Shown: piece after piece, positions 5,355 through 42,917 of the stretch | Position numbering within the stretch: the first letter of the stretch is position 1 | Layout: each line of letters starts with the position of its first letter | IMG/VR virus record: IMGVR_UViG_2925891887_000003 | DNA: 55,008 nucleotides | Direction: 5' to 3' (one strand) | Source: a virus | Taxonomy: Duplodnaviria > Heunggongvirae > Uroviricota > Caudoviricetes | Notes under the pieces: model-generated | The model's database searches: none | What the model was told of the DNA's origin: nothing | The model's input: the letters and a program-made list of their open reading frames with translations, nothing else | Translations under genes and position numbers: made by a program

Positions 5355-5905
5355 ATACCGGAACCATTACTAAGGAAGCTCTCAACGATTACCGCGCGGC
5401 GATAAAAAGCTGGCTGACACTACGTAATGTGCAAAGTACCAGCCAGCTTCGTCTGGCGGCTTTGCTGGATACTGAAGAAAAACCCGCAGCATATGCCAGC
5501 CAACTTGAGGATCTTCGTGAGCATCTTGTACTCCTCGAATGGCAGATTAACTGTGCCGCCCGGGATGGTCTTTATGCTCACCAGATTGTGCTGGAAAGCT
5601 GTGTTACAAGCGCAACTGAAAACTTCATGAGCGAGCATGGTGATGCACTCACTGACGCTCTGGCTCCTTTTCTTTGCGCACCATACGGGCTTGAGGCGGC
5701 AATGAAAATATTACGAACCGCTGTAGCCCGACAAACGGAAGTCCGTACTCCGGTAATTTCAGCAGCATATAAGAGCATTATCGACGAAACCGGATTAACG
5801 GTGGATGCATCAATGCGCGCTGATGCTTCAGCCAGTTTCACCCCGGCACAACATAAAGTTTTCCTGGCCCGCCTTAACCGACTTAATGAAAAAGGAGTGT
5901 GCTGA
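5351..5905 (+). CDS. Psu-like (polarity suppression / capsid decoration) protein
   Basis: 184 aa; ATGA overlap with the upstream gene. Segments ALTDALAPFL and SFTPAQHKVF resemble what I recall of P4 Psu. Moderate confidence. Confidence 0.55.
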   Translation: MNTGTITKEALNDYRAAIKSWLTLRNVQSTSQLRLAALLDTEEKPAAYASQLEDLREHLVLLEWQINCAARDGLYAHQIVLESCVTSATENFMSEHGDALTDALAPFLCAPYGLEAAMKILRTAVARQTEVRTPVISAAYKSIIDETGLTVDASMRADASASFTPAQHKVFLARLNRLNEKGVC

Positions 5906-5906
5906 T

Positions 5907-6179
5907 ATGGCCCTGAAGTGTCCTGAATGTGGCGCGGTCGCTCACGCTAGAACCAGCGCCTATGAAGCTCCGTCGGTTAAACGCTCATGGTATCAGTGCC
6001 AGAGTCTGGAATGTTCCTGCACATTTACCGCACTGGAAAGCGTGGATACGATAATTATGAAGCCTCGGCGCAATGAACAGGCATCAGACAAAGCAAAAAT
6101 GCCGGAAAAACAACAGCAAACTCTCAATCGCTATGGCTCCGCGTCAAAGCTGTCAAACCGTCAGCAAATTCCTGTCTGA
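5907..6179 (+). CDS. Ogr/Delta-family zinc-finger late transcription activator
   Basis: MALKCPECGAVAHARTSAYEAPSVKRSWYQCQSLECSCTFTALESV matches the Ogr/Delta C-x2-C...C-x4-C finger pattern; AAAGGAG RBS 9 nt upstream of the ATG. Confidence 0.85.
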   Translation: MALKCPECGAVAHARTSAYEAPSVKRSWYQCQSLECSCTFTALESVDTIIMKPRRNEQASDKAKMPEKQQQTLNRYGSASKLSNRQQIPV

Positions 6180-6270
6180 TTAGCAAAATACGCCCACGAA
6201 GTCTCGGTCCAGTACCGGGATTTTTTACGCTTTTTCCCTGGCTGGCCTGAGAGCGTATGAGTGCATATCT

Positions 6271-6309
6271 ATGGCGCATGAAAACGCATGAGTCTCATGC
6301 GCCATTTTT
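6271..6309 (+). terminator. intrinsic terminator of the late operon
   Basis: Perfect 11-bp inverted repeat atggcgcatga / tcatgcgccat followed by TTTTT. Confidence 0.6.
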
Positions 6310-6383
6310 GACGCGAAAGCCCTTGTGTGGTGGCTTCTGAGACGATTTAAGGGGTGCATGAAAACCAGTCTGTTAAGCGAAGC

Positions 6384-6407
6384 GGGCAGGCGGGCGGGGC
6401 TGCGCAC
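6384..6407. other. candidate cos (cohesive end) site of the P4-like element
   Basis: GC-rich gggcaggcgggcggggctgcgcac resembles my recollection of the P2/P4 cohesive end (GGCGAGGCGGGGAAAGCAC); sits where cos is expected, between the late operon and the cargo/int region. Not verified by alignment. Confidence 0.3.
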
Positions 6408-6451
6408 GCTGAGGGGAAGTATTGAGATCGGTGAGGGGAAATCTGATTCAT

Positions 6452-6473
6452 TAAAAAGGCCGCTTTCGCGGCC
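6452..6473 (-). terminator. intrinsic terminator ending the reverse-transcriptase operon
   Basis: Minus strand: GGCCGC-GAAA-GCGGCC hairpin followed by UUUUU, ~120 nt downstream of the RT-B stop. Confidence 0.6.
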
Positions 6474-6590
6474 TGTTTAGCTAAAAGGCAATAGTGTGTC
6501 TAAATCGGTCCATCCTCAAAACGTATCGCGAATATCTTTCGGATGAACATTCAAAAGCCGATCTTCCGGTATCTGCTTCAGGTCGAAACC

Positions 6591-8630
6591 TTAGGCATCG
6601 CAACCCTTTAACGAAATTAAAATACTACTATTCATATGCTGTTCGCAACTCTTTTTTATAAAGAACGTGCTCAAGATCAGCATCTCCAGACCAGTTAAAA
6701 AGATTACATTATTTTTTAAAGAATCAATTTCAGAATCAATTACTGCATTCGTAAATCTTTTTTGACCTGTATTTGCTTCGACATATGTTCTATAAATTAT
6801 TCTCTTATGCTTAACTGTAAGATATGGGCACGTCATCATATCAAGGAATAGCATAAATGTTTCAGTGTCTTTTTTTATATCGTTCCGACCACTTATCAAA
6901 CTCTGTATAGCAAGGACAATATCTTCTTTCATTTTTAGATAGAGAACATCATCGCCTATATAGTGTAACATGCTGCATATAGAAAAATATTCTAAATCGT
7001 AAAAACACTCATTCTCACTAATACCCAACAAATCCTTAAATTCATCTGGATTGAGTTTATACTGCTCCCCCAAACCTTTCATACATATAAGTAAGTTAGA
7101 TAACTCCACTGGCCTCTCATGAATATTACCCATGCTTTTCATGCACATAAGAAGCTCATCAAAAGTATTCTTTTTTATAACTTCACTAATGTCTGAAGCT
7201 TGCTTATTAGCAAATGAATTTATTTCCAAAATAACTTGGCTAATTATGTATGTCTGTCGGACTCGAAAATCCATAGCATAAATAAAAAAAATCACCTCAT
7301 TGAATATTGAGAAGAATTTATAAGTTATATCTTCTTTTCCTGACAGATCGAACATCCTCAACAGCCTAATTACTTTGAAAAACTTACTCTTAATCGCACT
7401 TATTAAGTATGAGCTAACAAGATCAAATGTGGTATTGTTTTTTCTAACCGCAATTTTGATTCGTTTTATAAATTTGTCCGCGTGTAGCTTTTTATTCCAT
7501 ACACCTTTCAATGGAAAAAGGTTATTCATATTTTCAGGCTGAATTTTGACGTCTGGATTTAAATTAACCATAGCTGTTAACTCATCCAACTTCTCAGTAT
7601 GGATTAACGATCCATATAAATCCTCAATGATTTCTGCAATATCATTTTTAGCCATCGTGGCTCCAGTCACGAATGGCCTCTCGATAAATTCCTTTTTAGA
7701 TTCATTCAAATAAAGCTTATATTTTTCGAGTTCATTTGCCAGTACAAATTCTATTAGCTTAAATGTTTCATCATCATCCGCAAATATAAAATAATCATCA
7801 ACGTAACGTCTTATAGCATAGCTCTTATCTTTAACTATGCCTGGCTCAAGATTCAAATGAGACTCAACATTCAAGTCAACGCGCTGTAATATAATCTCCG
7901 CAAATATCCTTGAAAATTCAGGCCCAATTATTATGCCATTTGTTTCACCATAATTGGCATCTTGAAAAAGCTTATCCAAACAACCTTCAAAGCTGTTATA
8001 AGTTCTATTAACCTTAGAGAATTCTTTAGATTTTACAGCCCATGAAACGCTGTGTGTATATATATGACTAAAACACTTAGCAATATCAAGCTTTAAAAGT
8101 TTCCTAAACTTCCTTTCCAATCTATGAAATTCATATGACTCATAAAACTTATAGATGAAAGGATATTTCTTATATGAAAAATGGGAAGATGAGGAAGTTT
8201 CTTGGGAATCAAAGCCATGATTATGAAATTGTACAAGACCATCTTTTAGATTTATTCTACTTTTTAAGAAGTCCTTTTCGTAATAATAGCTCCCTATTTT
8301 GCTAGGATAACGTAGCGAAAACGGACTTTTTGTACACATATGAACCATCAAATGTTCATACTTATCATAAAAATCACAGATTCTTAACTGCGTTGAAGGA
8401 TGTATAATGCCAAGGCTTCGAGAACTCGCCAGCCCCTTTTTTATTTTATAGGAGTAAGGGATGGTATAAGAATCCAGCTTAAGGCCTTCTGAAAATGTTC
8501 CGGGTAAAACTTTATTTTCAGAAATTAACTTATAGAAACCTTCGTTAGAAAAAAGGATAGGGACTTCATATGGTAAAATATCCGTGAGAAGTACTCTTTT
8601 ATAATCACTCTTCGATATTTTAATTTTCAT
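6591..8630 (-). CDS. reverse transcriptase, large (RT-B; UG/Abi-class defence-type RT with ~390-aa C-terminal extension)
   Basis: 679 aa, ~30% GC. RT motifs: LKLDIAKCFSHIYTHSV (motif A with Asp), NGIIIGPEFSRIFAEIILQRVD (motif B), RRYVDDYFIFADD (motif C, YVDD). GGTGA RBS; start 3 nt after the RT-A stop. Confidence 0.85.
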   Translation of the reverse strand: MKIKISKSDYKRVLLTDILPYEVPILFSNEGFYKLISENKVLPGTFSEGLKLDSYTIPYSYKIKKGLASSRSLGIIHPSTQLRICDFYDKYEHLMVHMCTKSPFSLRYPSKIGSYYYEKDFLKSRINLKDGLVQFHNHGFDSQETSSSSHFSYKKYPFIYKFYESYEFHRLERKFRKLLKLDIAKCFSHIYTHSVSWAVKSKEFSKVNRTYNSFEGCLDKLFQDANYGETNGIIIGPEFSRIFAEIILQRVDLNVESHLNLEPGIVKDKSYAIRRYVDDYFIFADDDETFKLIEFVLANELEKYKLYLNESKKEFIERPFVTGATMAKNDIAEIIEDLYGSLIHTEKLDELTAMVNLNPDVKIQPENMNNLFPLKGVWNKKLHADKFIKRIKIAVRKNNTTFDLVSSYLISAIKSKFFKVIRLLRMFDLSGKEDITYKFFSIFNEVIFFIYAMDFRVRQTYIISQVILEINSFANKQASDISEVIKKNTFDELLMCMKSMGNIHERPVELSNLLICMKGLGEQYKLNPDEFKDLLGISENECFYDLEYFSICSMLHYIGDDVLYLKMKEDIVLAIQSLISGRNDIKKDTETFMLFLDMMTCPYLTVKHKRIIYRTYVEANTGQKRFTNAVIDSEIDSLKNNVIFLTGLEMLILSTFFIKKSCEQHMNSSILISLKGCDA

Positions 8631-8633
8631 GAA

Positions 8634-9830
8634 TCACCAAACCTTATTTATTTTAATAATATCTTCCCGTTTAAAAGAAGACAGTAGCCGTTTTTCAAAA
8701 CCAGCCAAAAATGAGTATTTTTTAGGCGCAGTTAATAAGTTGTGACCTGCTGCTAAAATTTTTCTCCCCACCTCGCCCTTTGAAGAAAATAGCATCCTAT
8801 TCTTAAATATATCAAGTTCCTTGAGCTGTGTTTTATCAGTTATATGTTGATAATTGTAATAAATTCCACTATATAAAGCATCAGTTTTATTACTATTGGA
8901 GTTTACTAATATATTACCAGTTAAATACTTTATTCTTTTCTTCAAGAGTTCTGCATCAGAATTATTTGAGTAATCTTTTACCGCAAGTGCAATCCTTCTT
9001 TTTATTTTCTTTATTTTCTCCTCCGAAATTCTGATCACAACATGACGACGCTGATTTTTTAATCCATGGTGTATAATAAATGAATATCCCAAAAACTCAA
9101 TTTCAGAATGTTTAGTTGAAGTGTCCTCTATGGTATACTCACTGCACTTTCTTTCATTTAAATGTAATCCATTTGGTAAAATCCTTGAAAAATAATTTTT
9201 ATAATCTGGTATTTTATAGAATGAAAAAACTATGATATCATCCACATATCTTGAAGCATAAAAAACTTCAGGCAGCCTCGCCAACTCAGCATCAAATTCC
9301 TCCATAAATATTTCTGATAAAGTCGCACTTAATCCCATACCACGGGGAAGTCCGTTATTTGCAGAGAAAGCGTTATGTTTAAAAAGACCATTGATAAATT
9401 TTTTAGTATTATGAGAAATAATCGGGTTATTATTAATTCTTTGGAAAACGATATTTTTATCTATTGATTCATAAAAACTCTTAATATCCAGCCTGTAAAT
9501 ATAATAATTTACAGGCTCACTTAACACTGTATTTACTTTTTTTATGATGTCATGTCTGTTGTTTTGTTTAACACTATACACACGCTTAATGTTATCATTT
9601 ATTTTCCTGGCGACAAGTACATCCATAAAATCTTTAAATATATACACATTTTTGTTGTTAATTCTTGAATTTGAGATCGAACCAAATGAGTATGTTTCAA
9701 TTGAGCCATTAACTTTATCAGCTATATATTTTTTATATTCAGCTGAATTCCTACCAATTTTGTATCTTTTTGGATCGGTTTTTTTTAAAAGCTTAATTAA
9801 GTTCGAAACGGAAAATGACTGGTTTAACAT
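8634..9830 (-). CDS. reverse transcriptase, small (RT-A; UG/Abi-class defence-type RT)
   Basis: ORF track starts at GTG 9863 (overlapping int); ATG at 9830 with AAGGGG RBS preferred (398 aa). Motifs: YRLDIKSFYESID (A), GLPRGMGLSATLSEIFMEEFD (B), YASRYVDDIIVFS (C, YVDD). AT-rich. Confidence 0.85.
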   Translation of the reverse strand: MLNQSFSVSNLIKLLKKTDPKRYKIGRNSAEYKKYIADKVNGSIETYSFGSISNSRINNKNVYIFKDFMDVLVARKINDNIKRVYSVKQNNRHDIIKKVNTVLSEPVNYYIYRLDIKSFYESIDKNIVFQRINNNPIISHNTKKFINGLFKHNAFSANNGLPRGMGLSATLSEIFMEEFDAELARLPEVFYASRYVDDIIVFSFYKIPDYKNYFSRILPNGLHLNERKCSEYTIEDTSTKHSEIEFLGYSFIIHHGLKNQRRHVVIRISEEKIKKIKRRIALAVKDYSNNSDAELLKKRIKYLTGNILVNSNSNKTDALYSGIYYNYQHITDKTQLKELDIFKNRMLFSSKGEVGRKILAAGHNLLTAPKKYSFLAGFEKRLLSSFKREDIIKINKVW

Positions 9831-9831
9831 A

Positions 9832-11010
9832 TTATAACCCCTTTTTTTTGCGAAGATAATCACTGTACCATTGCATCATCTTCTGCCTTTCCATAAGGTA
9901 TATGGCATGATTATAAGTTCCTCTTATATTATTTCTATCAACATGAGCTAATTGGACTTCAATAAATGCTGATTGAAAACCTTCTTCATGCAAAATTGTT
10001 GATAACATATGTCTGAACCCGTGACCAGTGAGTCGGCCTTCGTAACCGATACGCTTGATAACTTGATTTATGCTAGCTTCGCTCATCGGTTTGTTCGGAT
10101 CGTTCCGTCCTGGAAAAACATAACGATAGTTCCCTGTCATTATCTTGAGTTCATGGAGTAAATCTAACGCTTGGGTCGACAATGGCACAAGATGCGGCCT
10201 GCGCATTTTCATCCTTTCAGCAGGAATTTCCCAAATAGCGTTATCCAGATCAAATTCTTGCCATAATGCCGCGCGTAATTCGATGGTTCTCACGCCCGTA
10301 ATCATCAGTAATTTCGTTGCTATCTGGACAAGCTTACTCCCGGTGTAACTCTCTAAGGCACGCAGAAATTCGGGTATCTCATCAGCTTTTAGGAACGGGA
10401 AATGATTGGATTGGTGCACTTCGAGAGCGCTGGAAAGATCTGCCGCAGGATTGTACTCCGCTCTACCCGTTGCAATTGCGTAGCGAAACACTTCAGAGCA
10501 ACGCTGACGCACTTTCCGCATTTTCTCCAACGCACCACGTTTCTCAATTTTACGCAGTACGTTCAGCAGCTCTAGCGGTTTAATCTCACTCACAGGCCTT
10601 GTTCCAACATAAGGAAAAATGTCGTTCTTAAACGCTTCCATGATGTCTGATGCATATCCTGCCGACCATTTAGCAGATTTAAGTTGATGCCACTCTCTGG
10701 CTATCTTTTCGAAGGCGTTCTCTGACTCTGCTTGCAGAGCCAGCTTTTGCTCTTTTCGAACATCACTAGGGTTCTTTCCTTCTGCCACAAGTTTTCGAGC
10801 TTCATCACGACGGGAACGAGCATCGGCAAGAGTGATCGTTGGGTAAACGCCAAGCGAGATCATCTTGGGTTTACCGGCATAGCGATAGCGGAACCGCCAG
10901 CTCTTGCTTCCATTAGGTTCTATAAGCAATGACAAGCCTTGCCCATCCCCAAGCGTATAGGGTTTATCTTCAGGCTTAGCGCGGCGAATCTGCATATCGT
11001 TTAAAGGCAT
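9832..11010 (-). CDS. int: P4-type tyrosine integrase
   Basis: 392 aa; N-terminus MPLNDMQIRRAKPEDKPYTLGDGQGLSL... typical of P4-family integrases; C-terminal HGFRHM...RGTYNHAIY catalytic region. Adjacent to the duplicated thrW 3' segment. Confidence 0.9.
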   Translation of the reverse strand: MPLNDMQIRRAKPEDKPYTLGDGQGLSLLIEPNGSKSWRFRYRYAGKPKMISLGVYPTITLADARSRRDEARKLVAEGKNPSDVRKEQKLALQAESENAFEKIAREWHQLKSAKWSAGYASDIMEAFKNDIFPYVGTRPVSEIKPLELLNVLRKIEKRGALEKMRKVRQRCSEVFRYAIATGRAEYNPAADLSSALEVHQSNHFPFLKADEIPEFLRALESYTGSKLVQIATKLLMITGVRTIELRAALWQEFDLDNAIWEIPAERMKMRRPHLVPLSTQALDLLHELKIMTGNYRYVFPGRNDPNKPMSEASINQVIKRIGYEGRLTGHGFRHMLSTILHEEGFQSAFIEVQLAHVDRNNIRGTYNHAIYLMERQKMMQWYSDYLRKKKGL

Positions 11011-11011
11011 G

Positions 11012-11061
11012 TGTATAGGAATCCATGACCGAACAGGAACATATACACAATCCTATACACA
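11012..11061. promoter_or_regulatory. 10-bp perfect inverted repeat just upstream of the int start codon (candidate operator or Int binding site)
   Basis: gtgtatagga ... tcctatacac separated by 30 bp. Confidence 0.3.
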
Positions 11062-11172
11062 TTCTTTATCGGATTCTACTGGATGGCTGCGGACGATGAT
11101 GGACTAAAAAACGGTAAAATCGTTATAAATCAGGGTATTTATGGATGAATACGGACATTTGGGGAAGTTGAG

Positions 11173-11219
11173 ATGGTGCCGATAATAGGAGTCGAACCTA
11201 CGACCTTCGCATTACGAAT
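11173..11219. repeat. att site: 47-bp duplicate of the thrW 3' end, junction between the two tandem elements
   Basis: atggtgccgataataggagtcgaacctacgaccttcgcattacgaat is identical to 53564-53610, which overlaps the 3' end of the intact tRNA. Confidence 0.85.
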
Positions 11220-11295
11220 TATAAGAATCCACTTCTAATTCAAAGCATTACCCCATCAACACTGCGCTCACACGTCCCACCACATCAAAACATGT

Positions 11296-11353
11296 AAAGC
11301 CTTGCAAGCCATTGCGAGGCCTTATGTGTCTCAGTTTTGTCCCACCTTGTATT
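11296..11353 (+). repeat. ~58-bp direct repeat, copy A (near the prophage end)
   Basis: aaagccttgcaagccattgcgaggccttatgtgtctcagttttgtcccac...; near-identical copy at 20129-20186; contains an internal hairpin GCCTTGC / GCGAGGC. Confidence 0.7.
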
Positions 11354-11568
11354 ACGACTTGCATAGCCAATGAAGATAAACGTGACGACAAACGGCGCAG
11401 CAGTCTTCTTTTCCTTCATACTTTCCCCACCCAGCATGCATACCTTTATGCCATAACTGAAGTTTATGTCTGTTATGAGCGAATTGCAGACATTAACGTT
11501 TGGTTAAGGGACGGGCTGTAGCCCGTCCCAGTGAGCGAAGCTTAATTTAGTCCGTGTGCAGCGCTTTG

Positions 11569-12999
11569 TTAGCCAAAACTGATGTGATTTTTAGTTAGAT
11601 CTCTATATCTCTTATCGTTGTGTACTTTATGGAGGATCGTTTGGTTGGCGATCAAAAAATCTATAATTTCTTGAATTCTTTCGCTACGAGCATTGGCTCT
11701 TAACAAAGTCAAAACGCTTACCATATGTTGCTGGCAGTATTTGTTGTCTAAATTCACTCGCACTTCATTAGAGTGCATTGCTATAACTGTATTGATAATG
11801 TTTTGATCGCCAAGCATGCCAAAAAACTGATCATACAAAGGTCGTCCCGCCGGAGAAACACCAGTATTATATGGTATTCCTTTACCAACACGACAAATCA
11901 AAACTGTTTTTATAAGCTTATGAACCCTCTCTAAAGGTATGTCATTTTCAGTCTTTAAATACGAAAGAATCTTCCGCATATGAGGGGGTTCATTATAAAA
12001 GTTATCCCAAGCATACCTAGCCTCTAAGAGATCGTCGGCATGGCCGTCCAGTGATATAATTCTAGAGTCTAATGATTGATAACGATTACCATCACAAAAC
12101 GTAAAAAACTCAATACCTAAAGCATGTTTCTCGTTGTGAAGATTGTTCTTGTATCCGTCTAGCGTCACGCCGAGCTTGTATTTTACGTTATCACTGCTTT
12201 TATTCCAGATATGCGGAGCAAAAAGAGCGATATTTTTTCTGACAACATTTCCTGTTGAATCAGCTGTATATATGCCGAAAATACTATTGAGTAGATTGTC
12301 AGTATTCTGAAGCGACAGATCATTCAAAGGTCTTTCCATGCTATGAATTGTGGCTTCATCAAGAACATCAGTGGATCTTTTTAGATTCTCAAGGAATGAT
12401 TTTATTTGTATGGCAGACGCGGACGGTTTGTCGTTCAAAATATCTTGAACGCATGTTTGGAGCCAGCCAAGAAGTTCAAAAGCATTTATGGAGTATGAAT
12501 TTGGGTGCGAAGCACCAATGTCATTCCTCATAGTCAATATATGATTGAGCTTGGTGTAAACAACGTCAGATATTAATTCAAGTTTTCGGCAAGTATTAAT
12601 AAGGGTGTTGTCTTTTAAACCAGAAAGATCTTCTTCGGTAGAATAAAGCTCTCTACGTCCTCCTCCAACTGCAGCATCAAAGAACATATCGAGGCCATAA
12701 ACTACTACTTTTTCCCTTAAATTCAGTACAACTTCATTCCAAACATAATTTAACGATGCATCAAATAGTCCTATAGCCGCACCAGCAACGAACTTTGATA
12801 AATATCGAGCATCTCTTTTTACCTCAGCAGGTAAAGAATCTATGAATGTGGGGAGGTTTTTTTCAATAATTTGGCGCTCAGGGAGAGAGGCAATTATATT
12901 TTCGGTCGGCAAACCAAGATAGGATAAATATCCTTCAAATTTTGTTGTATCTGTGGAAAGTACCCCTGTTCCAGGTTTTGCAATCAATTCTGAACTCAT
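11569..12999 (-). CDS. hypothetical 476-aa protein, AT-rich moron at the prophage end
   Basis: Long AT-rich ORF with ATG start; no motif I recognise. Strong 10-bp GC hairpin (11509-11531) downstream. Confidence 0.7.
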   Translation of the reverse strand: MSSELIAKPGTGVLSTDTTKFEGYLSYLGLPTENIIASLPERQIIEKNLPTFIDSLPAEVKRDARYLSKFVAGAAIGLFDASLNYVWNEVVLNLREKVVVYGLDMFFDAAVGGGRRELYSTEEDLSGLKDNTLINTCRKLELISDVVYTKLNHILTMRNDIGASHPNSYSINAFELLGWLQTCVQDILNDKPSASAIQIKSFLENLKRSTDVLDEATIHSMERPLNDLSLQNTDNLLNSIFGIYTADSTGNVVRKNIALFAPHIWNKSSDNVKYKLGVTLDGYKNNLHNEKHALGIEFFTFCDGNRYQSLDSRIISLDGHADDLLEARYAWDNFYNEPPHMRKILSYLKTENDIPLERVHKLIKTVLICRVGKGIPYNTGVSPAGRPLYDQFFGMLGDQNIINTVIAMHSNEVRVNLDNKYCQQHMVSVLTLLRANARSERIQEIIDFLIANQTILHKVHNDKRYRDLTKNHISFG

Positions 13000-17485: not shown

Positions 17486-18355
<870 letters not shown>

Positions 18356-41585: not shown

Positions 41586-42917
41586 ATGTTAGATACACTA
41601 TCTTTCACTGAACGTGACGAGTTCCAACGAAGAAACATCGCTGAAAATATCATCAAGTTGCTAAAACCAGAGGCAGACATTTCACCACTGGTAATAGACG
41701 GCGCATGGGGAACAGGGAAAACAGAATTTAGTATCAAACTGAAAAATCTCATTATTGAGCAAGAAACTGAATCTAAAGTTGTTTATATTGATGCCTTTAA
41801 AGGGGATCATGCAGAATCTCCATTACTTCTCATAACCTCTGCAATTGCCAGCATTTTGCCTGAGGAAGAAAAACAACACTTCATTAAGCGATCTCTTCCT
41901 GCAATTCGCTTTGGTTTAAAAACGGTACTAAAAGCTGGTGCAGGTTGGTTTTTACGACAGGAGGCTAGTGAAGTTGCCGAAGAATTCCAAGATGCGATGA
42001 AGAAAGCAAGCAATGCAGCAATAGATGGGACTATTGAAAATTTGCTTGAAGACCATATGGACTCAGAGAAAAACATAAATTCACTTAAATCCTGCATCGA
42101 AAGCATATCAAAAAATCAAAAAATCGTAATTATAATTGATGAATTAGACCGATGTAAGCCGAGTTTTTCAACAAATGTCATTGAAACAATAAAACACATT
42201 TTTGACATCAATAATGTCTTTTTTATTTTAGTTACAAACACAGAACAATTAAAAGCATCTATAAATCATATTTATGGTTATAGCATTAACTCACAAAAGT
42301 ATCTTGACAAGTTTATAAAATATACCATCACGCTTCCAGATACATGTTTGATAAATGGTCACAACGTATGTAAAGCCTCTGTTATATATTGGGATTACCT
42401 TGTAGAAAAAACAAGATTATTGAATAAAATCAATAGATTATCAGGTTGCTTTATCCGTGATTTAATTCAACGAACCAACTTATCATTACGTGAAACACAA
42501 ACATTTTCACGCAATCTTAACATTTTTCAACTGTTAAACGACGATGAGAACAAAAGCAGTGATCCTTTAATAAATATGATCTTTGTCGTAGCTGCCTTCA
42601 TACATTGCTTTGGTAACAAGGAAAAACTAAAACAAGAAATTACCGCTGAATCTATATCTTATTTAGCAGACCTGCTTAACATAAAAGAAATACCTTATTC
42701 TTATGAGAGAAGATCGCAAATCCCTGAAATATCCATTGTATTCTTCGGAATAATTAAAGACAGTATTACTCTTAATGAGCGATTTGCCCCTAAAAGTGAT
42801 GAAGAACTTAAAAAATTCACAAATGTTTATACTGATTATGAACACATAAATTTTTGGAGTACTACACCCAGAGAGTTATTGATAAAATATATTAATCAAA
42901 TGTCATTCATCCAGTAA
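41586..42917 (+). CDS. KAP-family P-loop NTPase (moron)
   Basis: 443 aa, AT-rich, opposite strand to its neighbours; Walker A IDGAWGTGKTEF and Walker B IIIDELDRC, the pattern of KAP NTPases. Confidence 0.75.
   Translation: MLDTLSFTERDEFQRRNIAENIIKLLKPEADISPLVIDGAWGTGKTEFSIKLKNLIIEQETESKVVYIDAFKGDHAESPLLLITSAIASILPEEEKQHFIKRSLPAIRFGLKTVLKAGAGWFLRQEASEVAEEFQDAMKKASNAAIDGTIENLLEDHMDSEKNINSLKSCIESISKNQKIVIIIDELDRCKPSFSTNVIETIKHIFDINNVFFILVTNTEQLKASINHIYGYSINSQKYLDKFIKYTITLPDTCLINGHNVCKASVIYWDYLVEKTRLLNKINRLSGCFIRDLIQRTNLSLRETQTFSRNLNIFQLLNDDENKSSDPLINMIFVVAAFIHCFGNKEKLKQEITAESISYLADLLNIKEIPYSYERRSQIPEISIVFFGIIKDSITLNERFAPKSDEELKKFTNVYTDYEHINFWSTTPRELLIKYINQMSFIQ

Follow-up and report, generated by a model that had tools for sequence, protein, structure and literature searches.

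A sequence match to the EcoDRT3 non-coding RNA downstream of drt3b in a P4-like satellite prophage of Escherichia coli

Identity of the RNA downstream of drt3b

Positions 6612–6452 on the minus strand of the analysed DNA, a stretch of 55,008 nucleotides referred to here as the window, almost certainly encode the non-coding RNA (ncRNA) of a DRT3 system that occupies the cargo slot next to the integrase in a P4-like satellite prophage of Escherichia coli, as judged from the sequence. All 161 bases of this segment (6452–6612, minus strand) match the sequence printed for the EcoDRT3 ncRNA of E. coli ECOR12 (161/161; Table S3, PMC13174585). The RNA has no differences from the EcoDRT3 ncRNA, and its partner proteins are about 99% identical to the ones that were studied. 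The cis-encoded ncRNA shares the strand of drt3b (UG8) and is located directly 3' of this gene, which in turn follows drt3a (UG3). The 5' end of the RNA is located 15 nucleotides past the canonical drt3b stop codon.

The ncRNA is an already known feature, published base for base, and because it has been characterised as the DRT3 ncRNA, there is nothing new in the feature itself. Publications from 2020 to 2026 cover the RNA, its template, its partner proteins, and the cryo-EM structures, and the locus is of little value for discovery. It can serve as a positive control, since an ncRNA of a defence reverse transcriptase (RT) was correctly inferred without tools, from the operon layout and the terminator. 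An earlier note on this DNA had proposed that the 3' region of a defence RT operon holds a candidate ncRNA associated with the RT, and this proposal is borne out by the complete match to the EcoDRT3 ncRNA and by the PADLOC assignment of the two RTs to Drt3a and Drt3b. The description of the region in that note did not contain the ACACAC template.

The comparison with EcoDRT3 was performed using the sequences printed in Table S3 of PMC13174585, and not the coordinates listed there. In that table, the coordinates of EcoDRT3a, EcoDRT3b, and the ncRNA appear to be interchanged or at odds with the order of the genes, and those of the ncRNA point to the junction of drt3a and drt3b; the printed sequences agree with the window.

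A covariance model, R1, was built from the window and two relatives with 84–90% identity, and the template was left unpaired in its structure. The single match of R1 in the window is the 161-nucleotide RNA, with a score of 204 bits. A match of R1 on the opposite strand of locus L083 (21.7 bits) was rejected, as it represents just the palindromic terminator hairpin. A scan of positions 5500–12000 against Rfam 15 with E-values of up to 10 identified no family matching the RNA. The library apparently does not contain a DRT3 family, and the absent match thus says nothing about the RNA and offers no confirmation by a curated model. The Rfam matches to a nematode snoRNA and nos_TCE are at chance level, are positioned inside coding sequences, and were discarded. 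The RNA is still annotated by neither PGAP nor Rfam, which constitutes an annotation gap.

Reverse transcriptase genes and genomic setting

The drt3b gene, as read in the window, spans positions 6591–8630 of the minus strand and contains 679 codons, the last 36 of which are out of frame (PADLOC Drt3b, E-value 5e-218). The drt3a gene (8634–9830, minus strand) encodes the 398-residue RNA-templated RT that uses the ncRNA (PADLOC Drt3a, E-value 1.7e-154). In the ranking of PADLOC profiles, RT_UG17 is the next best for Drt3a, and matches to retron RTs are weak. The gene of the P4-type tyrosine integrase of the satellite (9832–11010, minus strand) was recognised by the Pfam domains Arm-DNA-bind_3, Phage_int_M, and Phage_integrase, and a gap of one nucleotide separates its stop codon (9834–9832) from the drt3a ATG at 9830 (minus strand). 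The earlier note had argued that the region 3' of drt3b is the only place where a cis-encoded ncRNA could be located. The RNA does sit there, but the argument is loose because the RNA overlaps the open reading frame as read in the window.

Drt3a is identical to EcoDRT3a in 397 of 398 residues, and Drt3b is identical to EcoDRT3b in 398 of 399 residues over the part that was printed. Both proteins contain an RT active site. That of Drt3a was recognised by the Pfam domain RVT_1, with the YVDD motif visible in the alignment to EcoDRT3a, and Drt3b contains YVDD together with the gating residues E22 and R241, as established by the alignment to PDB 26CZ. Structures of the proteins are available in the PDB as 9Z6Y and 9Z6Z (Drt3a, Drt3b) and 26CZ (EcoDRT3b). 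In E. coli loci that share the region, PGAP gives the two genes these same names.

The window maps exactly to the genome of E. coli CFSAN064035 (NZ_CP031134.1), from position 618830. In the P4-like satellite, the DRT3 genes have the integrase on one side and delta/psu/sid-like genes on the other. This integrase-adjacent slot of P4-like satellites is reportedly a known defence hotspot (Rousset et al. 2022). The gene of tRNA-Thr(CGU) is located at positions 53565–53640, and an exact 47-nucleotide copy of the 3' part of tRNA-Thr is present at 11173–11219 and 53564–53610 (minus strand), the first copy being just upstream of the satellite integrase. The 47-nucleotide duplicate points to tandem integrations at tRNA-Thr, with a block of about 42 kb followed by the P4-like satellite (1–11 kb) that carries DRT3. 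The 42-kb block contains a tailed prophage (about 17–50 kb) and three cargo genes (11.5–17 kb). In E. coli F404 (locus L082), the same satellite is integrated directly at the tRNA. According to the annotation of the identical record, a KAP-family NTPase is encoded between the prophage lysis and Q genes (41586–42917, plus strand), and a GIY-YIG (LEM-3-like) protein is encoded just past the tail-fibre end of the prophage (17582–18355, plus strand). These two proteins may represent further accessory or defence cargo.

Structure of the 161-nucleotide RNA

Nucleotide n of the ncRNA corresponds to position 6613-n of the window, and all the elements described below are on the minus strand. The predicted structure can be divided into a multi-branch core, a single-stranded template, and a terminator hairpin. 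The core would be closed by the long-range helix P1, in which the 5' strand of nucleotides 1–10 (GUUAAAGGGU; 6603–6612) pairs with the 3' strand of nucleotides 124–133 (GCCUUUUAGC; 6480–6489) in the minimum-free-energy (MFE) fold; the pairing also agrees with the duplex energies and covariation described below. Within P1, the core is predicted to contain three stem-loops, two of them small and one long. The first of them is formed by nucleotides 16–39 (6574–6597) and includes the inner hairpin AGGU-UUCG-ACCU; helices 2 and 3 are paired in 96–100%, and a compensatory change from U25-A30 to C25-G30 in the inner hairpin occurs in L083. The other small stem-loop, CCG-GAAGAU-CGG (nucleotides 44–55; 6558–6569), was identified from the fold and from pairing in the subgroup of sequences to which the window belongs, and the conserved single-stranded segment GGCUUUUGAA (nucleotides 54–63; 6550–6559) is located on its 3' side.

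The long stem-loop (nucleotides 65–105; 6508–6548) is positioned directly 5' of the template and carries the loop UUCGCGA (6526–6532), which is invariant in the subgroup. It is probably the element named SL4 in PMC13174585, and we presume that it corresponds to the boundary element discussed there under that name. The template 5'-ACACAC-3' (nucleotides 114–119; 6494–6499), reported in the literature to template poly(dTdG), is part of the conserved segment AGACACACUAU. It would be exposed as a single strand between the long stem-loop on its 5' side and the returning strand of P1, which begins four nucleotides 3' of it. Neither the centroid fold nor the structure of R1 pairs any base of ACACAC, and A114 alone is paired in the MFE fold. 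The conserved single-stranded motifs in the subgroup of the window are GGCUU..A, the UUCGCGA loop, and AGACACACUAU.

The intrinsic terminator AGGCCGC-GAAA-GCGGCCU with a tract of five uridines (6452–6474) is included in the published RNA, and this GC-rich hairpin and U-tract form the 3' end of the ncRNA. The hairpin (6474–6457) and the U-tract (6456–6452) correspond to about nucleotides 139–160, and the terminator is the top terminator-like site in the 5.8 kb that were scanned. A structured, non-coding stretch ending in a strong intrinsic terminator, as described in the earlier note, is therefore present: the GGCCGC hairpin and U5 are found at 6474–6452, and the region folds more stably than dinucleotide shuffles, with z = -2.2 for positions 6450–6600 and z = -3.0 for the 161-nucleotide RNA (6452–6612), for which two of 200 shuffles fold equally well. 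The interval proposed for the RNA, 6474–6590, is within the molecule but does not cover it. The true unit extends from 6612 to 6452, so that the first 22 nucleotides of the RNA were missing, as were the hairpin and U-tract of the terminator at its 3' end.

Template conservation and helix covariation across drt3b loci

Genomes, metagenomes, and viral contigs yielded 167 drt3b loci, of which 141 are non-identical and have a complete gene end. ACACAC is present on the coding strand within 250 nucleotides downstream of drt3b in 138 of the 141 loci, which belong to many phyla. The motif occurs in 2/141 loci on the opposite strand and in 1/141 of the size-matched coding-sequence controls, and it is the commonest hexamer downstream of drt3b in the 141 loci. 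The 22 nucleotides following the AC run form a P1-type duplex with the region 5' of the run, with a mean energy of -17.2 kcal/mol across the family, compared with -12.3 kcal/mol for permuted partners (standard deviation of means 0.22) and -10.4 kcal/mol for the far flank. The P1 duplex is superior in energy in 121 of 138 loci. R1 recovers full-length homologues adjoining Drt3b proteins that are just 48–55% identical (approximate values).

A plain MAFFT alignment of the subgroup of the window misaligned the 5' strand of P1, and the covariance-model alignment was used for pair counts. In this subgroup alignment (A4), 91% of the cells are paired, compared with 32–50% in slid controls, and this pairing is inflated because the alignment was fitted to the model structure. 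Compensatory double changes are present in 34 of 40 pairs of A4, including 9/10 pairs of P1, 11/13 pairs of the long stem-loop, and 6/7 pairs of the terminator.

The second alignment, of 74 short-form loci, was calculated with MAFFT and was not fitted to a structure. Its sole invariant columns are those of ACACAC. P1, the template-adjacent hairpin, and the terminator, a structure that was named by hand for this test, are paired in 77%, compared with 28–46% when slid, and the covariation score is 0.475, compared with 0.09–0.18 when slid. RNAalifold returned an empty structure for the same alignment because the 74 sequences are aligned with too many gaps.

In six loci from Actinomycetota (L066, L070, L071, L076, L077, and L080), ACACAC is located 27–35 nucleotides past the drt3b stop codon and has P1-like flanks. 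For the UG8 groups from Terrabacteria, Mestre et al. 2022 found no downstream conservation and placed the ncRNA upstream. The actinobacterial loci with ACACAC may be a different subset from these Terrabacteria groups.

Function of the RNA and alternative readings of the region

The sequence identities, template conservation, and helix covariation reported here are from this analysis, and the expression, RT binding, templating, and defence role of the RNA are from the literature on an RNA of identical sequence. In RIP-seq experiments, the EcoDRT3 ncRNA, located in cis downstream of drt3b, co-purified with the RTs (Wang et al. 2026, PMC13174585). It contains a conserved 5'-ACACAC-3' loop, mutants of which lose poly(dTdG) synthesis and phage defence, and the synthesis of poly(dTdG) by purified DRT3a requires the RNA in vitro (PMC13174585). 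A passage in Mestre et al. 2022 (PMC9226505), citing Gao 2020, describes the 3' ncRNA of UG3+UG8 systems as essential. The same study reported a globally conserved, exposed "CACACA-like" motif at a variable distance from the RT gene (PMC9226505). The part of review PMC13314766 that deals with Deng et al. 2026 (Science) describes a particle with a 6:6:6 ratio of Drt3a, Drt3b, and ncRNA, in which the RNA serves as the scaffold as well as the template.

In the published mechanism, Drt3a (UG3) together with the RNA copies ACACAC repeatedly, with telomerase-like realignment, into poly(dTdG), and Drt3b (UG8) synthesises the complementary poly(dCdA) without a nucleic-acid template, primed from its C-terminal Tyr666 (PMC13174585). 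The two strands anneal into dsDNA, which is normally limited by RecBCD, and phage inhibitors of RecBCD such as Gam enable the dsDNA to build up, resulting in abortive infection (PMC13174585). The anatomy of the RNA found here fits this templating mechanism. In the locus of the window, the DRT3 RNA would template the synthesis of poly(dTdG) by Drt3a from the ACACAC at 6499–6494.

The canonical terminator, the absence of a promoter at the scan threshold just upstream, and the absence of an Rfam match would all agree with a plain, functionless 3' untranslated tail that ends the int-drt3a-drt3b transcript. Such a tail is nevertheless extremely improbable, because it explains neither the retention of ACACAC in 138 of the 141 loci nor the covariation of several helices, and the sequence is identical to that of an RNA that was experimentally found to be bound, to serve as a template, and to be needed for defence. 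The published mutagenesis of the ACACAC loop, carried out in the identical sequence, has already refuted it. Equally hard to credit is an RNA associated with another class of RT, whether a retron msr-msd, a rolling-circle template of the DRT2 type, or a poly(U)-templating RNA of the DRT9 type, a reading that draws on the general analogy in the earlier note. Retron and Drt2 profiles fit the RTs of the window far less well than those of Drt3a and Drt3b, the RNA is found downstream of the RT genes instead of upstream, a match to any Rfam family is lacking even at E-values of up to 10, and the conserved exposed motif is ACACAC. A retron msr-msd was rejected for these reasons, including the weak retron RT matches. 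None of the evidence speaks against the identification of the region as the DRT3 ncRNA.

Frameshift in the neighbouring drt3b allele

The earlier note placed the stop codon of the second RT gene at 6591. The TAA at 6593–6591 does close the 679-codon open reading frame, but the canonical drt3b stop codon is the TAG at 6630–6628 (minus strand), which terminates the conserved frame ...KKELRTAYE*, as determined by frame translation. The open reading frame extends to 6593–6591 because of a one-nucleotide deletion, found by comparison with relatives, in a run of thymidines at 6697–6701 (minus strand), which has five bases (T5) in the window and six (T6) in relatives. Owing to this 3' frameshift, the open reading frame as read overlaps nucleotides 1–22 of the RNA. 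With T6 restored, the conserved frame reads ...FNWSGDADLEHVLYKKELRTAYE* and the protein has 667 residues, as does Drt3b in F404, 13P460A, MS 145-7, and ECOR12. The alignment of Drt3b from the window to PDB 26CZ stops at residue 646, and the conserved 23-residue C-terminal tail, which includes the priming Tyr666, is exchanged for 36 out-of-frame residues. Tyr666 is absent from the reading frame as read, and present in the shifted frame.

The DRT3 system of this strain is either crippled next to an intact ncRNA, or the assembly contains a homopolymer error. We consider it somewhat less than an even chance that the system is disabled, with the deletion replacing the Drt3b tail and Tyr666 so that poly(dCdA) synthesis and defence are lost; the RNA would then be a relic or would support only the synthesis of poly(dTdG) by Drt3a. 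This agrees with the distribution of the thymidine run, as T5 occurs in the window and NZ_CP031134.1, whereas T6 is found in all relatives; F404, eleven further E. coli genomes, the relatives from IMG/VR and metagenomes, and the PDB construct combine it with a 667-residue protein. It also agrees with the importance of the lost tail, in which a tyrosine is present at the last or second-to-last position in 132 of 141 Drt3b homologues, and the mutation Y666F abolishes poly(dCdA) synthesis and defence against lambda (PMC13174585). However, T5 is found in one of 13 matching complete E. coli genomes, the assembly of the window itself, and a homopolymer that differs by one base in just one assembly is a textbook sign of an error in long-read assembly. 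Furthermore, the rest of the locus is intact and almost identical to functional alleles (161/161 for the ncRNA and 397/398 for Drt3a), and PGAP did not flag drt3b as a pseudogene. Because drt3b is frameshifted and lacks the priming tyrosine, the RNA may serve a crippled DRT3 system. Automated calls of "DRT3 present" may overstate function in this strain, since the drt3b allele in the assembly is without the priming tyrosine.

Origin of the RNA 5' end

The 5' end of the RNA would be generated either by an internal promoter or by the processing of the operon transcript. A candidate promoter for the ncRNA, read from the sequence (6619–6648, minus strand), consists of TTGCGA (6648–6643), an 18-nucleotide spacer, and TATTTT (6624–6619), followed by six nucleotides before G6612. 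In a promoter scan, no site on the minus strand reached the threshold just upstream of 6612, and the candidate matches 8 of 12 positions. The candidate is nevertheless retained across the subgroup of the window. TTGCGA encodes conserved Leu and Arg residues of Drt3b and is kept in relatives that are about 50% identical in protein. The Leu at the candidate -35 element is encoded by TTG in 17/18 relatives, compared with a background of 18%, and the Arg by CGA in 11/17, compared with a background of 14%. As these sequences are related to each other, the codon skew is just a lead, and the weak sigma-70-like element 5' of G6612 is likewise put forward as a lead only.

It is possible, although we consider it doubtful, that the ncRNA is a transcription unit of its own, with a sigma-70-type promoter that lies within the final drt3b codons, those for the priming tail ...ELRTAYE. 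If so, the end of drt3b would be under a dual constraint, as protein and as promoter, which would account for the TTG/CGA codon skew, and lesions such as the IS1 insertion in MS 145-7 would uncouple the supply of RNA from the RTs.

In E. coli MS 145-7 (locus L170, NZ_CP146655.1), an IS1 element (824–1521) is inserted between the drt3b stop codon and the 5' end of the ncRNA, at about 6625–6633 of the window. The flanks equivalent to the window overlap by nine nucleotides, consistent with the target duplication of IS1. The insertion detaches the ncRNA from the operon, and it falls between the -35 and -10 elements of the candidate promoter. Like the drt3b frameshift and the possible promoter within that gene, this IS1 insertion in another strain is a side observation of minor weight.

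Comparison with known systems

The RNA of the window is the same as that of EcoDRT3 from ECOR12 (Gao et al. 2020; Mestre et al. 2022; PMC13174585; Deng et al. 2026), with the same position, template, and partners. The neighbouring drt3b allele differs by its 3' frameshift, whereas the RNA itself shows no difference. The short-form DRT3 ncRNAs from other phyla, which belong to the "CACACA-like" groups of Mestre 2022, similarly have a P1 helix around a hairpin, ACACAC, and a terminator. However, they contain one hairpin within P1 and have the template 24–58 nucleotides past the stop codon, whereas the form in the window has three stem-loops within P1 and the template 129 nucleotides past the canonical stop codon.

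The ncRNA of DRT10 (UG17) and telomerase RNA likewise carry a short template in a structured RNA, which is recopied with realignment to produce tandem-repeat DNA, and Drt3a is related to the UG17 RT of DRT10. DRT10 is protein-primed and has a SLATT effector, whereas DRT3 combines an RNA-templated RT with a second, protein-templated RT, and the product is dsDNA. The ncRNA of DRT9 (UG28) is also a scaffold and template for a repetitive product in a hexameric ribonucleoprotein, but it is encoded upstream of a single RT and the product is poly(dA). The DRT2 (UG2) ncRNA and retron msr-msd are, like the RNA described here, cis-encoded structured RNAs that template a defence RT. In contrast to it, both are encoded upstream of the RT and neither has a six-nucleotide repeat template: the whole DRT2 RNA is copied by a rolling-circle mechanism, and synthesis in retrons is primed from a branching G.
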